The notes: a model not told the origin generated them from the letters alone. DNA of 64,000 bases from Candidatus Binataceae bacterium (GCA_035524375.1 DATKOZ010000033.1:26842-90841), one strand, 5' to 3'; positions 7,682 through 63,308 are shown, numbered from the stretch's first letter. Program-made: numbers and translations.

Positions 7682-8059
7682 TCACTCCTTTGAGTTGCGC
7701 GGCCACGCAAGCCAGATCGCCAGCGCAGGCGGCGCAAATACTCCGGGTAAATCGCCAATCAGCCGGCCCAAGGTCTCGCGGCCCGAGGCGGCATCCCAAA
7801 CGTGGACCATCGCGTGCAGCGAAAGAAACGCCGCCCCTGTCATCGCGGCACGCCATGCACGCGGATCCATTGCGAGCCATACCAATGATGCGCCCGCTAC
7901 AAAATAGGCGCATCCGATGTCGCGCACGAAATGAGGGTTAAACGGTCCGGTCGCGACGACGCCCGGAGTCAGCGCGTACCATGGCGCCGGCGCGACGAGC
8001 ATCAGCACGCCGTTTGCCGCGAGCAGGACGCCTAGAATTGTTGCAATGGTCGATCGCAT
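7682..8059 (-). CDS. Small integral membrane protein (about 4 TM helices), unknown function
   Basis: 125-aa ORF with hydrophobic segments (ILGVLLAANGVLMLVAPAPW, CAYFVAGASLVWLAM, AAFLSLHAMVHVW, PPALAIWLAW). It lies immediately downstream of cydB on the same strand. Confidence 0.5.
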   Translation of the reverse strand: MRSTIATILGVLLAANGVLMLVAPAPWYALTPGVVATGPFNPHFVRDIGCAYFVAGASLVWLAMDPRAWRAAMTGAAFLSLHAMVHVWDAASGRETLGRLIGDLPGVFAPPALAIWLAWPRNSKE

Positions 8060-10567: not shown

Positions 10568-10592
10568 GCGGTGATCCCCGGGTGTGCGCCGC

Positions 10593-12884
10593 TTATTCCC
10601 TCTGGTCCGGAACCATTCTTACTTTGCCGGGTTTTGGGGAGCGCGTCCCCCGCCCTGCCGCGCCGGCCGCCGCACCGGTGGCGGCACCGGCTCCCTTGCG
10701 GCCGCGAGTCTTGATCAGGGGAGCGACGTCGTCGCCGAGGCCTTTGATCTTGTGCGCTTCAAGGCGGCCGCGCGCCGATTCGCTGGCGTGGCGATGGGCC
10801 GAGCCGGGAGGAGTCGAAGCCTTCGCGGCGCGCCGCTGCTCCGCCTCTTGGGCGGCCGTATCCATGCCAAATACCTTGCGCTCCAGCCGTTTAATTTTGT
10901 CGCGCAGCTCCGCCGCCCGTTCGTAATCAAGCGCCTCTGCCGCTTCCATCATCTCGCGCCGGAGATCCGTAATTCGATCCGGCAGATCGTGCGCGGGAAT
11001 CGCCTCTTCGTCCTTGGCCGGCTTGCCATCGACTTCGGGCACGATCGCCCATTCGGGCGAATACATTTCGACCAGGGACGCATCGATCGCTTTGACGATC
11101 GATTTCGGTGTTATCCCATGCTCGCGGTTGTATGCCAGCTGCTTGGCGCGCCGGCGGTTGGTTTCATCGATTGCCTGCTTCATCGAGCCGGTAACGGCAT
11201 CCGCATACATGATGACGCGGCCGTTGACGTTGCGGGCCGCACGCCCGATTGTCTGAATCAGCGAACGAGCCGATCTCAGGTAGCCCTCCTTGTCGGCATC
11301 GAGAATCGCAACCAGTGAAACTTCGGGCAGGTCCAGTCCTTCGCGCAAAAGATTGATTCCCACGAGCACGTCGAACTCGCCGCCGCGCAGGCTGCGGATA
11401 ATCTCGACGCGTTCGATAGTCTCGATGTCCGAATGGAGGTAGCGGACGCGCACGCCCAGGTCGTGGTAGTAGTCGGTCAGGTCCTCGGCCATCTTTTTGG
11501 TCAGGCAAGTGACGAGCACGCGCTCGGAGGCGGCGACCCGCTTGCGGATTTCTTCGAGGAGATCGTCGACCTGCGTTCCGGCCTTGCGGACTTCGATCTC
11601 CGGATCGATCAGGCCGGTTGGGCGAATCAGCTGTTCGACGACCAGCCCCTCGGATTTTTTCAGTTCGTAATCGCCGGGTGTTGCCGAGACGTACACGGCC
11701 TGGTTCACGTGCTGTTCCCATTCCTCGAAATTCAGCGGGCGATTATCCAGTGCCGAAGGCAATCGAAACCCAAAATCGACGAGCACCTGCTTGCGCGATC
11801 TGTCGCCGCGATACATCCCGCCCACCTGCGGAATCGTCACGTGGCTTTCGTCGATGAAGAACAGCGACTCCTTTGGGAAATAATCCAGCAGCGTTGGGGG
11901 AGCCTGCCCCGGCGCGCGGCCCGTCAAATGCCGTGAATAGTTTTCGATTCCGGTGCAGAAGCCCATCTCGGCCAGCAACTCAAGGTCGTACATCGTACGT
12001 TGTTCCAGGCGCTGTGCCTCGACTAGGCGGTTATCCTTGCGAAAGAATTCGAGCCGCTCCTTAAGTTCGGCGCGGATGTTTCGCACTGCGGTTTCCATCC
12101 GATCGGAGGTCGTCACATAGTGCGAGGCCGGGTAGATCGCGATGCTCTTCAAGCGGCGCAGCGACTTTCCCCGCAACGCATCGATTTCATGGATTGCCTC
12201 GACCTGGTCGCCGAAAAATTCGATCCGCACCGCCGCGCGCTCTTCGTAGGCGGGAAAAATTTCAATTGTGTCGCCGCGCACGCGGAAAGTGCCACGATGA
12301 AAATCGTAATCGTTGCGCTGGTAGTGGATGTCCACCAGCTTGCGCAGCACCCGATCTCGTTCGATCGTCTGGCCTTCCTCCAGAAACACCAGCATCTCGA
12401 AGTACACTTCCGGCTCGCCCAAGCCGTAGATGCAAGAAACCGACGCGACGATCAGGACATCGTTGCGCTCGAGCAACGCCTTGGTAGCGGAATGGCGCAG
12501 CTTGTCGATCTCGTCATTGATGCTGGAATCTTTCTCGATGTAGGTATCCGTTGACGGGACGTACGCCTCCGGCTGGTAGTAGTCGTAGTACGAGACGAAG
12601 TACCGGACCGCATTTTCGGGAAACAAGCTCTTGAACTCGTTGTAAAGCTGCGCTGCGAGCGTCTTGTTCGGCGCCATCACCAGCGCAGGCCGATTTATCT
12701 GCGCGATGACATTAGCCATCGTAAAGGTTTTTCCGGAACCGGTGACACCCAACAGCACCTGATGCGGCACTGCGGCCCGAACGTTCTTTACGATCGCTTC
12801 GATAGCGGCGGGCTGGTCACCCTCGGGCTGATAGCCCGATACCAGTTGAAAGGTTCCACCCCTGCCGCGCGATTGTGACAGCAT
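10593..12884 (-). CDS. uvrB: Excinuclease ABC subunit B with an ~85-aa basic Ala/Gly/Lys-rich C-terminal extension
   Basis: Helicase motifs ([12 protein letters not shown]), a beta-hairpin region, the UVR domain ([22 protein letters not shown]), then a tail ...[39 protein letters not shown]. Confidence 0.9.
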
Positions 12885-13140: not shown

Positions 13141-13620
13141 ATGAAAATCGCGCGGGTTATGGCGGCGTCGGCGGTAATCGCATCCGCGATGACGGCAACT
13201 TCTCTGGCGCAAGAAATCCCATTGAAACCAGCGGCCGCTACTCCGGCCAGCAGTCCATCGTCGCCGGCTGTGCCAAAGGTCACCCATCGCGAGCGCGAGG
13301 AATACAAGCGATTTCTTCGCCGCCGCCCAAAGTTGAAAGCAGAACTGGAAAGGAACCCAAACCTGATCTACGACAAAGATTTTCTGCTAAAGAACCAGGA
13401 TTTCAGCGATTTCCTCGACGCACATCCAAACTTCAGAAAGGGCGTGCAACCGGGAACGGAATCGAGTTCTTCGACGGTGAACGAGCGCGAACAGCGCCGA
13501 CGGGAGAGAATCAAGCGGCGCGAAAAGCAGCTTTCCAACATGACCAAATCACATCACGAACAACCGCCACCAGCTTCGCCGGCTTCCGCCAGCGAACCCG
13601 CCCCCGTGCCGACGCACTAG
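13141..13620 (+). CDS. Secreted protein, paralog 1 of a small 'HP/NP-repeat' family (uncharacterised)
   Basis: Signal peptide MKIARVMAASAVIASAMTATSLAQE, then the module EYKRFLRRRPKLKAELERNPNLIYDKDFLLKNQDFSDFLDAHPNFRKG, then a charged low-complexity tail. It shares the module with the ORFs at 13642, 14349 and 62934. Confidence 0.7.
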   Translation: MKIARVMAASAVIASAMTATSLAQEIPLKPAAATPASSPSSPAVPKVTHREREEYKRFLRRRPKLKAELERNPNLIYDKDFLLKNQDFSDFLDAHPNFRKGVQPGTESSSSTVNEREQRRRERIKRREKQLSNMTKSHHEQPPPASPASASEPAPVPTH

Positions 13621-13641
13621 CAGACCGACTGGAATGCGCAA

Positions 13642-14238
13642 TTGAGAAATCGCTGCCTTCAATCCATCGTCGCCGGCGCAATACTATCGTTGTCGCTGAC
13701 ACCGCCTGCGCATGCACAGGGTGCGCCGCCGGGTTTCGGCATCCTCATGCGTGCGCAAAAACTTCATATGCTGCACATGGTTCCGGTACCTGAGCCGGTG
13801 GATCCCTTTCAAAAATATTACAACGAGCATCCGGATTTCGGAAAAGAGCTTCAGGAATTTGTCATTACATACAAAAAGACCAATCCAAAATCATACGATC
13901 AAGCGCAGAACAAATATTTGCTGCTCAATCCAAAGTGGCGAGCGCGCCAACCACGGGAGCTAAACGAGTTTCTGCAACGCCACCCCGACGCCTGGAAGGC
14001 CGCACTCTCCGCAGTGCAGTACTACTGGACCCCAGAGTTCTCAAAGTTTATGGATGACAAGCCGAAGCTGGCAGCGGAACTGAGGAACAACCCTGAATTG
14101 ATGTACGACGACAAATGGCTCGCAAAAAACCCCAAAGTCAAAGCATTTCTGCGTACGCATCGAGACGTGCTTTGCGACGTTTATTCATCGCCCCACTTCT
14201 CAGGCGCCAAAGCTGCGGATTCGATGCGAGCGCATTGA
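13642..14238 (+). CDS. Secreted protein, paralog 2 of the HP/NP-repeat family
   Basis: TTG start at 13642 (no in-frame ATG upstream). Signal peptide MRNRCLQSIVAGAILSLSLTPPAHAQ. Modules: YNEHPDFGKELQEF, LNEFLQRHPDAWKAAL, FMDDKPKLAAELRNNPELMYDDKWLAKNPKVKAFLRTHRDVL. Confidence 0.7.
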   Translation: MRNRCLQSIVAGAILSLSLTPPAHAQGAPPGFGILMRAQKLHMLHMVPVPEPVDPFQKYYNEHPDFGKELQEFVITYKKTNPKSYDQAQNKYLLLNPKWRARQPRELNEFLQRHPDAWKAALSAVQYYWTPEFSKFMDDKPKLAAELRNNPELMYDDKWLAKNPKVKAFLRTHRDVLCDVYSSPHFSGAKAADSMRAH

Positions 14239-14348
14239 CCGAGCGTGTATCAGGAGAATTTGTGTTACGTAATAACGGATAACTACCGAGCGGAACGCAC
14301 AATTCATCGCGTCGCCCGGCCAAACAGGAGGCCCAGCGGGAAAAACTT

Positions 14349-15077
14349 ATGAAACGAGGCAAACTTTTCGCAATCATCGCGATTTTGCTTTTGGCAACCA
14401 CGGCGCCGGCAATGGCTCAATACCCGGCTCCACACGGAGGATATTCTTCGATTCCATATTTCGCGAATTTGCCGGAAAGCAAAGATTTCCGGATGTTCGC
14501 GGAGCAGCATCCCGACATGCTTCAGCAATTGCAGAGCAAGCCGGGTGAAATTTTCAATCCCAATTGGCGATCACAGCATCCCTACTTGGAGCAATATTTC
14601 CAGAATCATCCGCAGACTTGGTATGCAATTCGCAACCAAGCGCCAAATTATTGGGATCCGAATTTCCGCAATTTCATGAATGGCCAGAAGAAGGCGGGCG
14701 CTGAGCTACTTGCCAATCCCGACCTAATCTATAATCGGGCTTGGATTTCGAGCCATCCCCGGGTTGCGGAATATTTGAAGACTCACCCTCAAGTGTTACG
14801 CACCATCGAAGTTAAGGCCGGCCGGCCTGAATATCCCATCCCTCCTTCAGCTCCTCATGGCTGGGGTGACTATGACGATCATCATGAATGGCACGACTAC
14901 GGCTGGTGGCAGGAGCATCATCCCAATTGGGCACGCAAGCATCATCCTGAGTGGTATGCCAACAAAGAGGCAATTGAGGAGCATCACCACGAGATGCAGC
15001 AGGAACACCATCACGATCATGGGCACGACAATGATCATCACGATCATCATGGCGACCATGGGCACGATCACCACTAA
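14349..15077 (+). CDS. Secreted protein, paralog 3 of the HP/NP-repeat family, with an extreme His-rich C-terminal tail (putative metal binding)
   Basis: Signal peptide MKRGKLFAIIAILLLATTAPAMAQ. Modules: FAEQHPDMLQQLQSKPGEIFNPNWRSQHPYLEQYFQNHPQ and FMNGQKKAGAELLANPDLIYNRAWISSHPRVAEYLKTHPQVL. Tail: HHEWHDYGWWQEHHPNWARKHHPEWY...EEHHHEMQQEHHHDHGHDNDHHDHHGDHGHDHH. Confidence 0.75.
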   Translation: MKRGKLFAIIAILLLATTAPAMAQYPAPHGGYSSIPYFANLPESKDFRMFAEQHPDMLQQLQSKPGEIFNPNWRSQHPYLEQYFQNHPQTWYAIRNQAPNYWDPNFRNFMNGQKKAGAELLANPDLIYNRAWISSHPRVAEYLKTHPQVLRTIEVKAGRPEYPIPPSAPHGWGDYDDHHEWHDYGWWQEHHPNWARKHHPEWYANKEAIEEHHHEMQQEHHHDHGHDNDHHDHHGDHGHDHH

Positions 15078-15090
15078 TAAATGAGCTCCG

Positions 15091-15124
15091 TCCGGCGGGG
15101 ATACTAAAGCGGGCCCCCGCCGGA
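15091..15124 (+). terminator. GC-rich hairpin downstream of the 14349..15077 gene (10-bp perfect stem TCCGGCGGGG / CCCCGCCGGA); no U-tract
   Basis: Inverted repeat read directly from the sequence, 14 nt after the stop. Factor-independent terminators without U-tracts are common in high-GC genomes. Confidence 0.4.
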
Positions 15125-15219
15125 CAAGCGGCAGTCGGAAGACTGAACCTCAACCTGGGCCAGTAATTCGCTGCAGGATAACCATCACGAAACAAGTTCG
15201 TAACTTTCCCCGGGGCCTG

Positions 15220-15249
15220 TTGCTTTTTACCGCCTGATATCACTATATT
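15220..15249 (+). promoter_or_regulatory. Candidate sigma70-like promoter for the OmpA-like gene (TTGCTT, 18-nt spacer, TATATT)
   Basis: Hexamers at 15220-15225 and 15244-15249. An RBS (GAGGAG, 6-nt spacer) precedes ATG 15343. Confidence 0.3.
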
Positions 15250-15342
15250 TCCCGGTCAATATGGACCTTTGGCGGCCTGCCAGCGTAACAGTGGAGCCGG
15301 CCAGGGTTGGGCGAAAACTTGCATGTGGTGAGGAGCAGCTTG

Positions 15343-16047
15343 ATGAAAGGAAAGCCGGGATTGGCCAAATCGATAGCCGCGATTGCGGGTGCCGCCCTTT
15401 TAACGGGCGGATTGACCGGTTGCGCGTCGATGCGCCAGCCCCGCGAATGGGGCAAATGCACTGTGATGGGCGCACTGGCGGGTGCTGCGGCCGGTGCGGC
15501 CAGTGGCATCGTGATTGCCGACAACGCCCATGGCAGCGGCAGCAGCTCAACCGACGCCCGCGCATTCGGCGGAATCGGCGGCGCAGCGGCAGGCGCCCTA
15601 ATCGGCGGCTTGACCGGACATTTCCTGTGCGACGAAATTATTCCACCACCGCCGCCGCCTCCTCCCCCGCCACCACCACCTCCACCGCCTCCTGCCGAGC
15701 CGGTAAAGCAAAAGCTCGTCCTGCGAGGCATCCATTTCGATTTTAACAAGTACGATATCCGGCCCGGCGATGCTGCTGTGCTAGATGAAGCCGCCGGCAC
15801 CCTCAAGGCTAATCCGACCGTGACGGTGAACGTCAACGGCTACTGCGACGCAATCGGAAGCGTCGAGTACAACCTCAAGTTGTCAGACAAGCGCGCTGGC
15901 GCGGCGGTCGATTACCTTGTAAAACAGGGCATCCCGGCCACTCAGCTGATTCCGCACGGCTTCGGCAAGACCGATTTTGTGGCGACCAATGATACCGACG
16001 AAGGCCGGGCTCAGAACCGGCGCGTAGAGCTGGTACCGGTGCAATAA
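15343..16047 (+). CDS. OmpA-family lipoprotein: lipobox, Gly-zipper region, 19-residue poly-Pro linker, C-terminal OmpA peptidoglycan-binding domain
   Basis: MKGKPGLAKSIAAIAGAALLTGGLTGC (lipobox), Gly-rich stretches (GALAGAAAGAASG, GGIGGAAAGALIGG), PPPPPPPPPPPPPPPPPPP, then the OmpA_C signature NGYCDAIGSVEYNLKLSDKRAGAAVDYL...RAQNRRVEL. Confidence 0.85.
   Translation: MKGKPGLAKSIAAIAGAALLTGGLTGCASMRQPREWGKCTVMGALAGAAAGAASGIVIADNAHGSGSSSTDARAFGGIGGAAAGALIGGLTGHFLCDEIIPPPPPPPPPPPPPPPPPAEPVKQKLVLRGIHFDFNKYDIRPGDAAVLDEAAGTLKANPTVTVNVNGYCDAIGSVEYNLKLSDKRAGAAVDYLVKQGIPATQLIPHGFGKTDFVATNDTDEGRAQNRRVELVPVQ
15644..15693. repeat. Low-complexity CCN trinucleotide tract encoding the poly-Pro linker (poly-Gly on the opposite strand)
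   Basis: ccaccaccgccgccgcctcctcccccgccaccaccacctccaccgcctcct. It explains the spurious 197-aa Gly-rich antisense ORF 15243..15836. Confidence 0.8.
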
Positions 16048-16124
16048 GGCGGGGCGCTTGGTTAAGACCGATTAACGGCGCACCAGAATTCCGCAATAAC
16101 GTGAAGTTGGGAGGGTAAGAGTCA

Positions 16125-16628
16125 ATGTCAAATCAAGGAAAATCAATCATGAAAGGGCTGGGCGGCGGCGCAATGATCGCAGCCCTGCTGTTCGTGTCGG
16201 GATGCGGCTGCACGTTGACGCCGCCGGCACCCCCGCCGGCTCCGGTTGCCGCCGCTGCGCCACCACCACCACCACCGGCCCCGATGCAGCAAAAAATCGT
16301 GCTGCGCGGAGTTCATTTCGATTTCAATATGTGGAACATTCGCCCCGGCGATGCCGCGGTGCTGGACGAAGCCGTACCAACGCTCAAGGCGAATCCCGGC
16401 GTGATGATTCACGTCAATGGCTATTGCGACATCATCGGCTCAGTGGAGGCCAACCAAAAGTTGTCGCAGGCCCGCGCCGGTTCGGTTACGGACTACCTGA
16501 TGAGACAGGGCTTGTATCCCAGCCAGTTCCTGCCTCGCGGCTATGGTAAGACCGACTTCGTCGCGACCAACAAGACCGAGGAAGGCCGCGCCCAGAACCG
16601 CCGGGTCGAGTTGGTACCTATCCAGTAA
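16125..16628 (+). CDS. OmpA-family lipoprotein, tandem paralog (Pro/Ala-rich linker + OmpA_C domain)
   Basis: GGGAGGG RBS 9 nt upstream of ATG 16125. Lipobox LLFVSGC. Linker TPPAPPPAPVAAAAPPPPPPAP. The OmpA_C domain is ~75% identical to that of 15343..16047 (NGYCDIIGSVEANQKLSQARAGSVTDYL...RAQNRRVEL). Confidence 0.85.
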   Translation: MSNQGKSIMKGLGGGAMIAALLFVSGCGCTLTPPAPPPAPVAAAAPPPPPPAPMQQKIVLRGVHFDFNMWNIRPGDAAVLDEAVPTLKANPGVMIHVNGYCDIIGSVEANQKLSQARAGSVTDYLMRQGLYPSQFLPRGYGKTDFVATNKTEEGRAQNRRVELVPIQ

Positions 16629-16648
16629 CACGACCCGAACGGAATGCC

Positions 16649-16692
16649 AGGACGGCCGCAGTCCCTAACAGGGGCTGCGGCCGTTCCATTTC
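16649..16692 (+). terminator. Hairpin downstream of the second OmpA gene (GGACGGCCGCAG ... CTGCGGCCGTTCC) followed by ATTTCG
   Basis: Imperfect 12-13 bp inverted repeat, 20 nt after the stop. Confidence 0.4.
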
Positions 16693-16753
16693 GATGCGGC
16701 CTGACGAAGTTAATGGCTGACACCAAACCTTAAATCTGGTATAAAAAGCGAAC

Positions 16754-17311
16754 ATGTTGCCGGGGAGGTTCATAGCGGCATTCGGTGCCGCCGCACTTGT
16801 AATCGCAATATCGATACCCTCCACTTCCGCTCTCGCTCAGACCGCCGCTTCCGTTAATCCCGACGCTGCGCAACCAGCGGCCCCATCCGCCGCAAAGAAG
16901 ACGCTGCGCCAGCGCGTAAAACAGAAGGTAAAGGCGCTGGTCGAAAGCTTTACCCCGACCCGGGTCGAAATGGACCGCGAGTTCAAAAAGGCCGCTGCGC
17001 TGTTCCCGCACTTTTGCGACCATTGGCAGCAGGATTTGCGCGATCGCGAGACCAACAACCTGTCCCAGCTCACTTTCACAGATAAGGACGGGTACAAGGT
17101 CGCGACCTACACCGGCTACGGAAAGATCGAGTCCTGCGAGGCGCACCAATCGAAGGATGGCTTCGCGATCGGCAAGCTCGCGTACAAGGAATATGTCTAC
17201 TACATCACGGGTAAGAGCCCCGCTGAGGCCCGCCATGCCGCTCCCAAGCCCGTCAGCACAACCTATACGACGGAGATCTTTCGCTGGGACAAGGGCCAAT
17301 GGTTCTACTAG
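16754..17311 (+). CDS. Secreted hypothetical protein (signal peptide; Lys-rich N-terminal region)
   Basis: MLPGRFIAAFGAAALVIAISIPSTSALAQT signal. It is the last gene of the same-strand envelope run and is followed by a strong terminator. Confidence 0.6.
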   Translation: MLPGRFIAAFGAAALVIAISIPSTSALAQTAASVNPDAAQPAAPSAAKKTLRQRVKQKVKALVESFTPTRVEMDREFKKAAALFPHFCDHWQQDLRDRETNNLSQLTFTDKDGYKVATYTGYGKIESCEAHQSKDGFAIGKLAYKEYVYYITGKSPAEARHAAPKPVSTTYTTEIFRWDKGQWFY

Positions 17312-17361
17312 AAGTCGCAGTTCCACCTTTCGCCGGTTTTCAAAGCACGCCGCTTAACTAG

Positions 17362-17403
17362 AAATAAAAACGGGCCGCTGGTGCAACCAGCGGCCCGTTT
17401 TGC
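17362..17403. terminator. Bidirectional intrinsic terminator: AAAAA - CGGGCCGCTGGT - gcaa - CCAGCGGCCCG - TTTTG
   Basis: Perfect 11-12 bp stem with A-run and T-run flanks, lying between the convergent genes 16754..17311 (+) and 17420..18649 (-). Confidence 0.7.
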
Positions 17404-17419: not shown

Positions 17420-18649
17420 TTAGTTTAGTTCCTTGCTGCTGTAGCCAAGGATGCGCCGGCCCACGATGATCATATTTACCTGCTGCGTGCCCTCGAAGAT
17501 GTCGTTGATTTTGGCATCGCGCATCCACTTCTCGACGAGATTCTTGCGCGAGTAACCCAGCGGGCCCAGCACTTCCACGGCTTTCTGGGTAATCTGTGTG
17601 ACGGCCAGTCCCGCCTTGGCCTTGGCCATCGAGGCTTCAAGGTTGTTGTGCTTGCCGGTGTCGAGCATCCATGCGGCCCGCCAGGTGAGCAGACGGGCGG
17701 CCTTTAACTGCACCTCCATGTCCATGAAGTCGCGCTCGAGCGCGGTCAGTCGGCGCGGCGATATTCCATAGCGAACGGGGATGTTGTTCTGCTTCAGAAA
17801 ATCGCGCACGAAATCGAGTGCGGCGCGCCCGACGCCGAGCGCCATCGCGGCGACGATTGGGCGGGTGGCGTCGAAGGTCGCCATTACGTCCTTGAAACCG
17901 CCCTCTTTCTTCACTTCGGCGCTGCCGAGGATGTGATCGTACGGGATGCGGCAGTTGTCGAAGATAATCGCGGCGGTGTCGGAAGCGCGGATGCCGAGCT
18001 TGTTCTCGACGCGCGCAACCGTCATGCCGGGCGTGTGATGCTCGACCACGAACGGTTTGATTCCCGCGCGGCCGGCGCTCTTATCGACGGTTGCCCACAC
18101 GACAATCAGGCCATCGGACTTCTCCGCCGCCATTTGTCCGGCGGTGCAGAAGATTTTTGTGCCGTTGATCACCCAATGGTCGCCGTCGCGGGTGGCCGTA
18201 GTGGTAACTGCCGCCGAATCGGATCCGCACCCCGGCTCCGTAATCGCCATCGCGCCCCACTTCGGCTTGCCTTCCCGGAAGCGCTTTAGAAAGCGCTCCT
18301 TCTGTGCGGGCGTGCCGGCGGCCATGATCGCCGCGCCGCCCAGTCCCGCATTCGGTGTCGAAAGGAAGAGACCAGCGTCGCCCCAGCACATCTCCTCGGT
18401 GCTGATCACCGTGTATAGATTGCGCAGCTTGGGGCCTTTGGAGGTCGTATCTGCCGGTCCGGTGGTGCCGCCGCCGGGCTGCACGTCGGAGCTGGACGAG
18501 GCCGCCCAGATCAACTCGTAATAATTGGTTGGCTTGGTATGTTCGTTCTCGTCGAATTCACGCGAGATCGGGCGCAGCACGTCGCGCGCGACGCCGTGAT
18601 AGAGCTTCAACCGGTCGATTACCTGCGGTTCCAATTCAAAATCGATCAT
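17420..18649 (-). CDS. Acyl-CoA dehydrogenase (canonical catalytic Glu present)
   Basis: 409-aa ACAD with the C-terminal ...DAKINDIFEGTQQVNMIIVGRRIL motif carrying the catalytic base Glu. Confidence 0.9.
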   Translation of the reverse strand: MIDFELEPQVIDRLKLYHGVARDVLRPISREFDENEHTKPTNYYELIWAASSSSDVQPGGGTTGPADTTSKGPKLRNLYTVISTEEMCWGDAGLFLSTPNAGLGGAAIMAAGTPAQKERFLKRFREGKPKWGAMAITEPGCGSDSAAVTTTATRDGDHWVINGTKIFCTAGQMAAEKSDGLIVVWATVDKSAGRAGIKPFVVEHHTPGMTVARVENKLGIRASDTAAIIFDNCRIPYDHILGSAEVKKEGGFKDVMATFDATRPIVAAMALGVGRAALDFVRDFLKQNNIPVRYGISPRRLTALERDFMDMEVQLKAARLLTWRAAWMLDTGKHNNLEASMAKAKAGLAVTQITQKAVEVLGPLGYSRKNLVEKWMRDAKINDIFEGTQQVNMIIVGRRILGYSSKELN

Positions 18650-18661
18650 GATCTCCTCCAG

Positions 18662-19771
18662 CTAAACCGTCGCGATTCCGTCGATCGTTGCCAGTCCACG
18701 CGCGTTGCGCAGGTACAGCTCGACCGGATGCTCGCGGATGTAACCGTGGCCGCCCAGGCACTGCACGGAGTTATCGGCAACTTTAAGCGCGCTTGCCGAT
18801 ACATAGTTCTTGGCCAGGTAGCTTTCCTTCAGGCCGTCCTTGCCCTTGTCGAGCTGGGAGGCCGCCTCCCATACCAGTAATCGCGATGCGTCGATCTCGA
18901 TCGCCATGTCGGCCAGCATGAATGCGATCGCCTGCTTGGTCGCGATCGGCACGCCGAACGCCTTGCGCTCCTTGGCGTAATCGCGTGAATATTCGAACGA
19001 CGCGCGCGCCATTCCGATCCCAAGCGCCCCAATTGCCACCCGCGCCTGGCTCATCAGGCGCGAGAAATCGATTCCCTTCTCTCCGCCCAATCGCGCTGCT
19101 CCATCGACGCGGCAATCCTTGAGCGCAATTTCATAGGTCGCAAGGGGTTTGAGCCCCATGTTCTTTTCGCGCTCGGAAATTTCCATCCCCTTGGCGCCCT
19201 TCTGGATTAGGAATCCATCCACGCCCGCAAAGCCCGAATCCTGCTTGGTCGCGGCATACACCAGGATCGCTCCCGATTCATTGGCAATCGGCACGAAGCA
19301 TTTGGTGCCATTGAGCACGTATCCGCCGCCGTCCGCCTTGGCGGTCACCTGCATCGCCGTAAGATCGAAATCGAACCGTGGCTCCACGACGGCGGCCGTC
19401 GCCGGCGCAAAGCTGTTGGCGCCAAACCGCTTCAATTGCTGCGCGCGCTGATCGTCGGTCCCGAATTCAAGGACCGGGAATGCGAGCAAACGGGGCGCCA
19501 GCACATGGATCGCGATCGACAAATCGCCGTACCCGAGCTCCTCCGCGACCACCGCGCCGGTAATCGCCGACCGGGTGTCGCCGTCGCCGCCGAATTTCTC
19601 GGGGATTGCGCCGCGGACCAGGCCCAATTGCCAGGCCTGCTCGATCAATTCGCCGGGGATTTTTCCGCTTTCGTCGGCGGGCCGCGCGGCGGGCCGAATC
19701 TGCTCGCGCGCAAACGCTCCGACCGTGTCGCGGATCATCTGCTGTTCTTCACTAAGTTCGAAATCAACCAT
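18662..19771 (-). CDS. Acyl-CoA dehydrogenase-family protein, partner subunit (Asp in place of the usual C-terminal catalytic Glu)
   Basis: 369-aa ACAD fold, 12 nt upstream of the other ACAD on the same strand. The equivalent C-terminal motif reads ...NARGLATIDGIATV. Confidence 0.85.
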   Translation of the reverse strand: MVDFELSEEQQMIRDTVGAFAREQIRPAARPADESGKIPGELIEQAWQLGLVRGAIPEKFGGDGDTRSAITGAVVAEELGYGDLSIAIHVLAPRLLAFPVLEFGTDDQRAQQLKRFGANSFAPATAAVVEPRFDFDLTAMQVTAKADGGGYVLNGTKCFVPIANESGAILVYAATKQDSGFAGVDGFLIQKGAKGMEISEREKNMGLKPLATYEIALKDCRVDGAARLGGEKGIDFSRLMSQARVAIGALGIGMARASFEYSRDYAKERKAFGVPIATKQAIAFMLADMAIEIDASRLLVWEAASQLDKGKDGLKESYLAKNYVSASALKVADNSVQCLGGHGYIREHPVELYLRNARGLATIDGIATV

Positions 19772-43518: not shown

Positions 43519-44439
43519 ATGCGCAATCGAATTGTAATCATCGCAGCGGCACTGGTGGCCATTTGGTTTGGAAGCGTCCTGGCACTCCATTTCGGCCAAA
43601 AGCATCACGACAATCTCGGCTACGATATCGACGAGCACTTTCCGCCCGGCAAACCGGTTGTGCCCGGTGAAATCTTCGCCTCCACACTGGCCGCAATCAT
43701 GGATCATGAGCTCCACACCGGTTTTGGATGGCGTCCGAATGATTTTTTCCTGTGGGGACCTGCGATTGGTCCGGACAATAATGCGAATCGGCAATTGGGA
43801 ATCATTATGGCGGTCCGCGAAACCACCCGCGTTTTCAAAGACGATCTCACGAAGGTGTCGTCGAATCAGTACGACAAAAATCTGGTAATCGCCGATACCG
43901 ATTTCCGCAACGACGCTGAGAAGTGGGTCCTGCCCGCACCGGAAGGCAAGTACGACGATGGCGTTCAGCATCTCCAACTGTATGCTCAAGGCCTTCATAC
44001 CAGCCCGGAATCATCCCGCGAACTAAATGTGCGCGCAGTCGAACTGGTGCGGCTGTTTCAGGCGTGGACCGACCTTTTAGGGGACGCTCACGCCAACCTG
44101 TACCGAACTACAAAAGATGACGGTTCGCCGATTCGATGGTGGAGCAGCGCGCGTGACTTTTATCACGCGCAGGGCTACGCGCACGTGATGTATCACATGA
44201 TGATCGCGCTAAAGCGGGAATATGCCGAAGTGATCAAAAGCGATCCGACGCTGGCGACCTTGTTCGACGACACTATCGACGCGCTCGGCAAGGCCGCAGT
44301 CCTCAAGCCGCTGGTGATTATGAATGGCTCTCCGGACGGCTTGTTCGCAAACCATCGCCGCAACTTGGACGGCTACATCACCGAAGCCCGCCAGAAAATG
44401 TATTCGATTCGCGAAGAATTGCAGCGATCGCCACTCTAA
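43519..44439 (+). CDS. Membrane-anchored hypothetical protein (single N-terminal TM; possibly DUF2333-like)
   Basis: MRNRIVIIAAALVAIWFGSVLALHF then a ~280-aa soluble domain. Fourth gene of the tightly spaced gshA run (3-nt gaps). Confidence 0.5.
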   Translation: MRNRIVIIAAALVAIWFGSVLALHFGQKHHDNLGYDIDEHFPPGKPVVPGEIFASTLAAIMDHELHTGFGWRPNDFFLWGPAIGPDNNANRQLGIIMAVRETTRVFKDDLTKVSSNQYDKNLVIADTDFRNDAEKWVLPAPEGKYDDGVQHLQLYAQGLHTSPESSRELNVRAVELVRLFQAWTDLLGDAHANLYRTTKDDGSPIRWWSSARDFYHAQGYAHVMYHMMIALKREYAEVIKSDPTLATLFDDTIDALGKAAVLKPLVIMNGSPDGLFANHRRNLDGYITEARQKMYSIREELQRSPL

Positions 44440-62680: not shown

Positions 62681-62866
62681 TGTCTCTTTCCGGCCATGCG
62701 CACCGATTTTTCAAAAGGATATCATCGGTCCAGCGGCGGTTCAAACCACCTGCCGATGCTGTCTACTAAGATGAATCGGCCCTCGGCCTTCCGTCCTTGC
62801 CGGTTATTTTAACCACGATTTCCGAATTCGCCAGCCCCAACCCTCCGCCATGCGAATCGCCAAGGG

Positions 62867-62933: not shown

Positions 62934-63308
62934 ATGAAGAAACTACCCGGTCTGCTAACGGCGGTGACATTCGTCGCCATTTCGGCAACTGGCCTATTCG
63001 CCCAGGAAAGCGGCTCGCAGCCACAGGTTAATGGCACGGTTGTTCGCGGCAATACGACGATAGTGTTTGAGGCTGCCAATACCAGCGACTTGCCGATGGA
63101 CCTGTATAAAATTTGGGGCGAATTCGAAAAATCGCATCCAGACATCGAACACGACCTTGCGTATAACCCTAAACTACTCGACGACGCCAACTACCTGCAT
63201 AAACATCCGGATTTCGCCAAATTGCTCGACGAAAATCCCGAACTGTTCAAAGAAATGAGGCGCAATCCGGGCAACTTCGCCGCCATCCCGCCCCGGCCGG
63301 GCGAATGA
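62934..63308 (+). CDS. Secreted protein, paralog 4 of the HP/NP-repeat family
   Basis: Signal peptide MKKLPGLLTAVTFVAISATGLFAQ. Module: EFEKSHPDIEHDLAYNPKLLDDANYLHKHPDFAKLLDENPELFKEMRRNPGNF. The track ORF starts at 62850 in non-coding leader. Confidence 0.65.
   Translation: MKKLPGLLTAVTFVAISATGLFAQESGSQPQVNGTVVRGNTTIVFEAANTSDLPMDLYKIWGEFEKSHPDIEHDLAYNPKLLDDANYLHKHPDFAKLLDENPELFKEMRRNPGNFAAIPPRPGE

Follow-up and report, generated by a model that had tools for sequence, protein, structure and literature searches.

Closest described systems and layout of the run

Lipoproteins of the Pal, YiaD and PA1041 type combine a lipobox and a linker with an OmpA-C domain at the C-terminus; in characterised OmpA-C domains, such as those of OmpA and Pal, an Asp and an Arg bind diaminopimelate. 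The mycobacterial haemophore family (MHB, PF16525 / TIGR04529; Rv0203, PDB 3MAY) is made up of small, secreted, all-helical proteins. His-rich segments, such as the loop of ZnuA and the termini of ZraP, bind metal in the periplasm. These groups, together with the NTF2-like, cystatin-like and Tim44 C-terminal alpha+beta folds, are the closest known systems to the locus analyzed here.

The locus lies in a 64-kb stretch of DNA (the window) from an uncultured Binataceae MAG; the Binatia are an uncultured lineage, globally common in soil and sediment. As the first-pass annotation had it, six co-oriented envelope genes run divergently from uvrB, each product carries an export signal, and neither the ORF list nor Pfam and NCBIfam place a cytoplasmic enzyme or regulator within the run. 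Three of the products, P1 to P3, are made up by units of a ~50-residue helical repeat (HP/NP) belonging to an unnamed family. Promoters and terminators were called from sequence and conservation alone. The features are:

10593-12884, - strand: uvrB, divergent from the run
13141-17311, + strand: run of six ORFs, P1 to P6, all products exported
13141-13620, + strand: P1, secreted, 159 aa, one HP/NP unit, basic Pro/Ser-rich C-terminal part
13642-14238, + strand: P2, secreted, 198 aa, two HP/NP units, one degenerate and one canonical
14349-15077, + strand: P3, secreted, 242 aa, two HP/NP units (residues ~45-157), a Trp/His/Asp-rich segment and a His-rich C-terminal tail
15090-15125, + strand: hairpin after P3, perfect 11-bp arms, 14-nt loop, 13 nt past the P3 stop, no U-tract
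15220-15249, + strand: candidate P4 promoter, sigma-70-like, TTGCTT, 18-nt spacer, TATATT
15343-16047, + strand: P4, lipobox LTGC, Gly-zipper-like segment, 17 consecutive Pro, OmpA-C domain
16125-16628, + strand: P5, shorter tandem paralog of P4, lipobox VSGC, Pro-rich linker, OmpA-C domain, no Gly-zipper segment
16652-16684, + strand: hairpin after P5, 15-bp arms, GGCCGCAGTCCC / GGGGCTGCGGCC
16717-16745, + strand: candidate P6 promoter, sigma-70-like, CTGACA, 17-nt spacer, TATAAA
16754-17311, + strand: P6, secreted, 185 aa, alpha+beta, two invariant Cys (88, 128)
17367-17401, both strands: closing hairpin, perfect 16-bp arms, 3-nt loop, between P6 (+) and the convergent acyl-CoA dehydrogenase operon (-)

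On balance we lean towards viewing the run as a positionally conserved envelope neighbourhood of Binataceae which comprises three or more independently transcribed units, and not as one operon or a dedicated machine. The set is named as a system by neither Pfam nor NCBIfam, in line with the earlier remark that it is not a described one. For the most part the finding is an ordinary one, in which known anchor proteins are joined by lineage-specific proteins.

OmpA-like lipoproteins and transcription units

P4 and P5, rightly taken for OmpA-like lipoproteins at first pass, match Pfam OmpA (PF00691) with E=4.7e-22 (78.6 bits) and E=6.1e-19 (68.6 bits), over a cut-off of 27.2, and are 70% identical across the OmpA domain. 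By pattern match, the lipobox [LVI][ASTVI][GAS]C follows the signal peptide at residues 24-27 in both (numbered from 15343 in P4). The presumed diaminopimelate-contact motif (..TD.. and ..LSxxRA..), here of the form GYCD...LSxxRA, reads GYCDAIGSVEYNLKLSDKRA in P4 and GYCDIIGSVEANQKLSQARA in P5. The ORF list opens P4 at TTG 15307; the start was set at 15343 because a conserved RBS, GGTGAGGAG, precedes an ATG there. Lipobox, linker and C-terminal OmpA-C domain (E about 1e-19 to 1e-22) are shared with Pal, YiaD and PA1041, and the Gly-rich zipper-like segment of P4 with the latter two, but both proteins fall below every NCBIfam equivalog cut-off, and their type of linker is an unusually pure Pro run (17 Pro in P4, about 14-25 in relatives). 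Assignment to Pal was rejected, as both proteins stay short of the TIGR02802 cut-off of 125.35 (78.1 and 62.8 bits) and have uvrB and acyl-CoA dehydrogenase genes as neighbours, unlike the adjacent tol genes of Pal. Assignment to the YiaD or PA1041 equivalogs is not supported by the scores either (P4 scores 119.1 vs. 175 and 122.5 vs. 250, P5 lower). On the strength of the domain identity, and of what is established for OmpA-C proteins, P4 and P5 would be tandem-duplicated outer-membrane lipoproteins which bind peptidoglycan through the OmpA-C domain and so link outer membrane and wall in the manner of Pal, YiaD or OmpA, the polyproline run acting as a stiff spacer.

Intergenic gaps from P1 to P6 measure 21, 110, 265, 77 and 125 nt. 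P2 starts with TTG only 21 nt past the P1 stop, and the 77-nt gap between P4 and P5 is free of hairpins; P1 and P2 are thus probably co-transcribed, as are P4 and P5. The hairpin reported earlier at 15091-15124 was found at 15090-15125, and a candidate promoter lies downstream of it, as had been noted. Folding of the hairpin is modest (z=-2.55; equalled by 4 of 200 shuffles), and in related loci a hairpin of other sequence is found from a few to about 125 nt past the stop of the P3-like gene; it is probably a terminator, or a 3'-end stabiliser, of the P1-P3 transcript. The P4 promoter-like site was overlooked by the consensus promoter scan. Its hexamers are invariant or nearly so across six aligned loci, within poorly conserved DNA, and are followed by an invariant block which extends to 15264.

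A stronger hairpin (z=-5.15; none of 200 shuffles as good) follows P5. The motif is found downstream of nearly every OmpA-like gene examined in related loci, in several of them followed by T-runs, and has no second copy within the window; the hairpin is a probable terminator of the OmpA unit. Of six related loci, five keep the P6 promoter in the form GCTGAC ... TATAGA, and L008 diverges there. The promoter stops 8 nt short of the ATG, so that P6 appears to be transcribed from its own promoter as an mRNA which is leaderless or nearly so. Both this hairpin and the P6 promoter-like site had been missed when the run was described as one module closed by one terminator, and that description does not fit the signals found.

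The closing hairpin had been called a strong bidirectional terminator. Its perfect arms and stability on both strands (z=-7.3 on +, -5.0 on -), with A-run and T-run flanks, bear this out in part, but a canonical U-tract is found on the - strand only, four T following the stem on the + strand, and the consensus scan called a terminator there on the - strand alone, on the acyl-CoA dehydrogenase side. It would be common to P6 and the convergent operon.

Gaps of up to 265 nt, internal hairpins with z of -2.55 and -5.15, and internal promoter-like sites are at odds with a single operon. The internal hairpins, and the conserved promoter-like sites before P4 and P6, would divide the run into three transcription units or more: P1-P2, probably together with P3; P4-P5; and P6. 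In the window both internal hairpins lack a good U-tract; this, and the modest z of the first, imply that read-through may occur and give rise to a longer transcript.

P6, correctly listed before as another secreted protein, belongs to a family seen solely in Binataceae/Binatus-labelled sequences. It would be a periplasmic alpha+beta protein, in which a disulfide is probable. The N-termini of P6, P1, P2 and P3 conform by rule to signal peptides (basic start, hydrophobic core, AxA-type site).

Gene order in related loci

The comparison of genomes suggested at first pass was carried out. P3-like, OmpA-like and P6-like genes reside together in 10 further Binataceae/Binatus loci, always with uvrB first, then a single P3-like gene, polyproline OmpA-like genes in one to four copies, a single P6-like gene and two acyl-CoA dehydrogenase genes; the scattering of orthologs that would have spoken against the run was seen in none of the ten. 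P3 orthologs adjoin uvrB in L005, L008-L010, L013, L014 and L017-L020. The OmpA-like genes are arranged in tandem, each copy with its own conserved hairpin, a further difference from Pal, YiaD and PA1041, and duplication of a gene along with its terminator would make their number drift among genomes, where it ranges from 1 to 4. Such polyproline-spaced lipoproteins represent a natural example for studies on tethering and spacing of outer membrane and wall. Co-occurrence of HP/NP and polyproline OmpA genes holds for P3, the sole HP/NP gene present in all related loci, but not for P1 and P2, which are outside the conserved core. A P1-like ortholog (42% identity) is found in L021 upstream of a P2-like gene.

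The same loci also keep the flanks, namely uvrB, the two acyl-CoA dehydrogenase genes, an oxidoreductase gene and uvrA. As these housekeeping genes are equally conserved, co-localisation does not prove a functional module: what is conserved is a whole chromosomal stretch within one family, indistinguishable from inherited gene order. The dedicated envelope module proposed earlier is supported as to conserved co-localisation, but is weakened by the apparent splitting of the run, by the conservation of the flanks and by HP/NP genes residing alone elsewhere.

The three units may be functionally linked. P3 and P6 might form a dedicated envelope system with the OmpA-like lipoproteins, P1 and P2 being part of it or not; the genes would be co-regulated even if separately transcribed, and the system might be, for instance, a His-rich periplasmic metal buffer or chaperone which the anchors hold at the interface of wall and outer membrane. 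Every product is exported, and the trio of P3-like, OmpA-like and P6-like genes is contiguous in 11 of 11 loci, even though identity falls to 31-36% for P3 (51-65% for P6, about 65-77% for OmpA); insertions (L007, L008, L017, L018) are found beside the trio, never inside it, which could reflect selection for linkage. Yet the housekeeping flanks are as conserved in position, and linkage accordingly does not single out the trio; a separate housekeeping-type promoter and hairpin go with every unit; no regulatory motif common to the units was found; and HP/NP relatives reside elsewhere with neither OmpA nor P6 neighbours. All loci informative on linkage carry both the uvrB and the acyl-CoA dehydrogenase flanks, and the distant P6 homologs in L012 and L016 lie at contig ends, so that they provide no wider test of linkage. 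Such a system is unlikely, and the positionally conserved neighbourhood is the reading we retain. Were the system real, it would offer a first way into the function of the Binatia cell envelope.

HP/NP proteins

The three HP/NP proteins are paralogs, as had been proposed, pairwise matches being significant. P2 and P3 match with E=2e-24, and P1 has one unit in common with each of them (E=3e-10 and 2e-6); the P1 unit scores 79.8 bits against the A2 profile. The unit is widespread, 1,202 cluster representatives being detected at E<=1e-3 and 725 at E<=1e-10, and is found in up to 8 copies per protein. It consists of short helices in series, every one of them capped by Asp-, Asn- or His-Pro; the AF2 model of P3 folds the HP/NP units as short helices with pLDDT 78-92. 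HP/NP genes devoid of OmpA or P6 neighbours were found in L001, in L022 and in the window itself (62934-63308, 46 kb away). P1, P2 and P3 would be periplasmic proteins of all-helical units bearing a weak likeness to the MHB domain.

This likeness raises the question of whether HP/NP proteins are haem-binding haemophores, true relatives of Mycobacterium Rv0203 which carry haem across the periplasm. MHB and TIGR04529 are the best or only family match for P2, and are among the weak matches for P3; HP/NP-type helix caps are shared, along with small size, secretion and all-helical make-up. The scores nonetheless lie below threshold, both for PF16525 (P2 16.3, P3 13.9 bits, cut-off 27.4) and for TIGR04529 (P2 20.7, P3 14.8 bits, cut-off 32). 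Multi-unit relatives exceed the Pfam whole-protein threshold of 27.4 (P0004 34.3, P0129 65, P0139 58 bits), but by summing weak per-repeat matches, and the same proteins match many unrelated helical families, among them XPC-binding, UBQLN1, GST_C_3 and BRK, which suggests a helix-cap pattern in common rather than homology to MHB. No PDB sequence matches the HP/NP profile at E<0.1, no haem uptake or degradation gene is found near the HP/NP genes and, in contrast to MHB, the unit is tandemly repeated, up to eight times, in diderm bacteria. The haemophore assignment is very improbable.

The same architecture would also suit ATP-independent periplasmic chaperones or client binders, analogous to Spy, CpxP, ZraP or eukaryotic STI1/DP, with grooves of amphipathic short helices and the His tail of P3 as a pH or metal switch. 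The serial capped helices, the expansion to 8 tandem units and the matches of relatives to ubiquilin/STI1-type families are consistent with this, and the best, albeit non-significant, PDB match is the STI1 DP domain (E=0.17). The argument is, however, purely architectural, with no support from gene context; no match to the Spy/CpxP/ZraP (LTXXQ) family was found in Pfam or NCBIfam at E<=1, and neither that family nor STI1 is matched significantly by sequence or fold. We regard a chaperone role as distinctly unlikely.

In the P3 tail 16 of 32 residues are His (HDHGHDNDHHDHHGDHGHDHH-like). The tail is retained in P3 orthologs, varying in sequence, and its composition is what speaks for the earlier idea of metal handling. 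Judged by composition, the tail would most likely bind a divalent metal (Zn, Ni or Cu) in the periplasm. Like the segments of ZnuA and ZraP it is exported and His-rich. P3 differs from these in that Pfam and NCBIfam relate its sequence neither to ZnuA or ZraP nor to CusF, CopC and the like, and in that no transporter or regulator lies nearby. In a broader proposal, which we hold to be quite improbable, HP/NP would be a novel and widespread family of helical repeats that bind a ligand in the periplasm (metal, haem or a hydrophobic client; ~1,200 representatives, up to 8 tandem units), and the His-tailed P3 of Binataceae would combine with lineage-specific P6 and the OmpA anchors with their polyproline runs into an undescribed system buffering metal or stress at the interface of wall and outer membrane.

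The analysis delimits a secreted family whose members are marginally labelled as 'haemophore' or 'phage-related' in the libraries. The NCBI call for P2 (P0001, 182 aa) starts 16 codons downstream and truncates the signal peptide; in the L021 ortholog of P2 the signal peptide is complete and the gap measures 24 nt.

The six-gene run and its chromosomal setting

Six genes, P1 to P6, lie on the + strand between uvrB and a pair of acyl-CoA dehydrogenase genes, and their ORFs and export signals bear out the first-pass annotation, according to which they are co-oriented envelope genes divergent from uvrB.

Genes of the run and its flanks (window coordinates)
10593-12884, divergent, upstream of the run: uvrB
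13141-13620, + strand: P1, HP/NP ORF
13642-14238, + strand: P2, HP/NP ORF
14349-15077, + strand: P3, HP/NP ORF
15343-16047, + strand: P4, OmpA-like ORF, the longest form of which opens at TTG 15307
16125-16628, + strand: P5, OmpA-like ORF
16754-17311, + strand: P6, ORF of a secreted protein
17420-18649, convergent, downstream of the run: acyl-CoA dehydrogenase gene
18662-19771, convergent, downstream of the run: acyl-CoA dehydrogenase gene

Rule-based inspection suggests that every one of the six products is exported: P1, P2, P3 and P6 combine a basic N-terminus and a hydrophobic core with a cleavage site of AxA type, and P4 (LTGC) and P5 (VSGC) each carry a lipobox. Public counterparts (VMU16_06100, 06105, 06110 and 06125) are identical or near-identical to the three HP/NP proteins and P6. 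The G+C content at 13750-15000 (P2-P3) is 49-54% vs. about 57-65% in the flanks, which may reflect either a Lys/Asn/Tyr/Phe-rich protein composition or a different history.

The related loci were retrieved by way of their P3-like and P6-like proteins. Ten more distinct loci, taken from Binataceae/Binatus MAGs and metagenomes (L005, which shares its contig with L011; L008; L009; L010; L013; L014; and L017-L020), all feature the same order: uvrB (-), one P3-like gene, one to four genes for polyproline OmpA-like lipoproteins, one P6-like gene and two acyl-CoA dehydrogenase genes (-), then usually genes for an oxidoreductase and Cu-oxidase_4, and uvrA. Relative to their window counterparts, UvrB is about 83-86% identical, the OmpA-like proteins about 65-77%, P6 51-65% and P3 31-36%. 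The co-localisation noticed earlier is conserved, the orthologs being kept together rather than scattered, and that observation was largely right. Since the housekeeping flanks are as conserved as the envelope genes, what is conserved is the gene order of an entire chromosomal stretch in a single family, and functional linkage and inherited order are not separable on that basis. Two more divergent P6 homologs (42% identity in L012, 47% in L016) both reside at contig ends, their upstream neighbours being cut off; efforts to find further settings of divergent P6 genes by way of L012 and a metagenome scan yielded a single locus, truncated in the same manner.

Some genomes carry small insertions (a GH43 gene, short ORFs) that separate P6 from the dehydrogenase genes or lie past the latter (L018 7647-8531, L007 563-2524, L008 3693-4088, L017 10188-10715); none falls within the P3-OmpA-P6 stretch in the genomes compared. 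The presence of three HP/NP genes in the window cluster is unusual, most Binataceae loci keeping only P3. The trio is not a one-off and predates the window genome, as P1-like, P2-like and P3-like genes are found in the same order at 68-1679 of L021, a divergent 1.68-kb metagenome contig (31-42% identity to the window; P1-P2 gap of 24 nt).

Hairpins, candidate promoters and proposed transcription units

The run had been proposed to be a single dedicated module. This is not supported, as internal hairpins and conserved promoter-like sites would split the run; the better-supported reading is a neighbourhood specific to the lineage, in which envelope genes transcribed separately are grouped around ordinary OmpA-type anchors.

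Hairpins and candidate promoter elements in the window
15090-15125: hairpin after P3, 11-bp perfect arms, z=-2.55
15220-15225 and 15244-15249: hexamers of the P4 candidate promoter
15250-15264: invariant block TTTCCnnGTCAATnnGG
16652-16684: hairpin between P5 and P6, z=-5.15
16717-16722 and 16740-16745: CTGACA and TATAAA hexamers of the P6 candidate promoter
17367-17401: closing hairpin, perfect 16-bp stem, z=-7.3 on the + strand and -5.0 on the - strand

The gaps separating P1 to P6 measure, in order, 21, 110, 265, 77 and 125 nt. The hairpin earlier reported after P3 is real, though only modestly better than shuffled sequence. The hairpin between P5 and P6, overlooked in the first-pass annotation, is stronger, none of 200 shuffles being as good. 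The closing hairpin, described as a strong bidirectional terminator, has a U-tract that is canonical on the minus strand only, the side of the dehydrogenase operon.

A consensus promoter scan of the region found no promoter, and the conserved candidate promoters emerged from alignments only. In the spacer 5' of the first OmpA-like gene, aligned across six loci, an invariant island stands amid poorly conserved DNA. It includes a candidate P4 promoter, TTGC(A/T)T and TATATT separated by an 18-nt spacer, and, just downstream of the -10 hexamer, the TTTCCnnGTCAATnnGG block, which is invariant in the six loci and may act as an operator or as an element of the 5'-UTR; a conserved ribosome-binding site, GGTGAGGAG, precedes the P4 ATG at 15343. 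Directly after the last OmpA-gene hairpin, GCTGAC and TATAGA, about 17 nt apart, are found in five of six related loci. In the window the corresponding -10-like hexamer ends 8 nt 5' of the conserved P6 ATG and no Shine-Dalgarno sequence is present (16740-16756), an arrangement kept in five related loci; both features suggest that the P6 mRNA is leaderless. When the uvrB-P1 and P2-P3 spacers were aligned with the spacers between uvrB and P3 in relatives, no clear shared promoter emerged. Gaps, hairpins and promoter-like sites together argue for at least three putative transcription units, P1-P2(-P3), P4-P5 and P6.

OmpA-like anchors and their hairpin

P4 and P5 match the Pfam OmpA domain (E=4.7e-22 and 6.1e-19, respectively), over which they are 70% identical. 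P4 carries 17 consecutive prolines, P5 a Pro-rich linker, and across OmpA-like proteins the length of the pure proline run ranges from about 14 to 25 residues. P4 and P5 share the architecture and binding motif of proteins that tether the outer membrane to peptidoglycan, and both score below every equivalog cut-off of NCBIfam for Pal, YiaD and PA1041. Copy number differs between otherwise syntenic genomes, one gene being found in L008, two in the window, L005, L010 and L019, three in L009, L013 and L014, four in L017, L018 and L020.

In related Binataceae loci almost all polyproline OmpA-like genes that were examined are followed by the hairpin CGGCCGCAGTCCC-loop-GGGGCTGCGGCCG (GGCCGCAGTCCC / GGGGCTGCGGCC), found at L005 9669-9696 and ~10585-10612, at L009 6072-6099, 6958-6986 and ~7819-7846, and likewise in L010, L013 and L014. 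A T-run often comes after it. The window copy is found after P5 only (16652-16684), and the sequence has no other occurrence in the 64-kb window or in the loci. Because the hairpin accompanies OmpA-like genes and is missing elsewhere, gene and terminator seem to duplicate as one unit. The most useful by-products of the analysis are this apparent mode of OmpA amplification and the fact that a secreted repeat family with no name has been delimited; literature searches turned up no account of the HP/NP repeat or of clusters of polyproline OmpA lipoproteins.

The GGCCGCAGTCCC hairpin was also considered as a genome-wide REP-like element, an option rejected given its confinement to the 3' side of OmpA-like genes. 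A one-mismatch GGCCGCAGTCCC site at 44292 lies within an unrelated ORF. Rfam returned nothing relevant, the sole match being BSnc120 (23 bits vs. a gathering score of 114).

The HP/NP family

The three HP/NP genes had been called paralogs, and this holds: P2 and P3 are plainly paralogous (E=2e-24), and P1 has one ~50-residue unit in common with each. A P2-only word-indexed homolog search matched the source protein alone. A profile made from 11 units (54 columns), run exhaustively against 1.84 billion cluster representatives, matched 1,202 proteins at E<=1e-3, of which 725 also reach E<=1e-10, with up to eight tandem units per protein. Relatives carry no label, or are termed 'hypothetical' or 'phage-related'. 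The IMG label 'phage-related protein', borne by the multi-unit proteins P0129 and P0132 and their relatives, was probably carried over spuriously on the strength of weak matches to helical repeats.

Pfam has no family dedicated to HP/NP proteins, and neither the unit profile nor an 8-unit relative had a significant match among PDB sequences. Membership in the mycobacterial haemophore domain (MHB) family is not established, since P2 reaches 16.3 bits and P3 13.9 bits vs. a cut-off of 27.4, and multi-unit relatives exceed the cut-off through summed weak repeats and also match many unrelated helical families.

HP/NP genes also reside away from OmpA-like genes. A fourth one in the window (62934-63308, +; start at 62850 in the ORF list), coding for a secreted, single-unit product of about 124 aa (profile E=6e-9), adjoins prfA, 46 kb from the cluster, with neither an OmpA nor a P6 neighbour. 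Elsewhere, the genes of the three-unit P0004 (locus L001) and the six-unit P0132 (locus L022) lack OmpA and P6 neighbours.

The public annotation of P2 (P0001, 182 aa) begins 16 codons past TTG 13642, so that most of the signal peptide is lost (13642-13689); the longer form is favoured by the L021 ortholog. P3 orthologs retain three parts: the signal peptide together with a single HP/NP unit, a stretch rich in Trp, His and Asp in which (D/N)HP(D/E)W motifs recur, and a C-terminus that is His-rich but varies in sequence. The tail of P3 itself has 16 His in the last 32 residues, a composition typical of metal-binding segments; metal handling, earlier suggested for the whole run, would on compositional grounds concern P3 alone.
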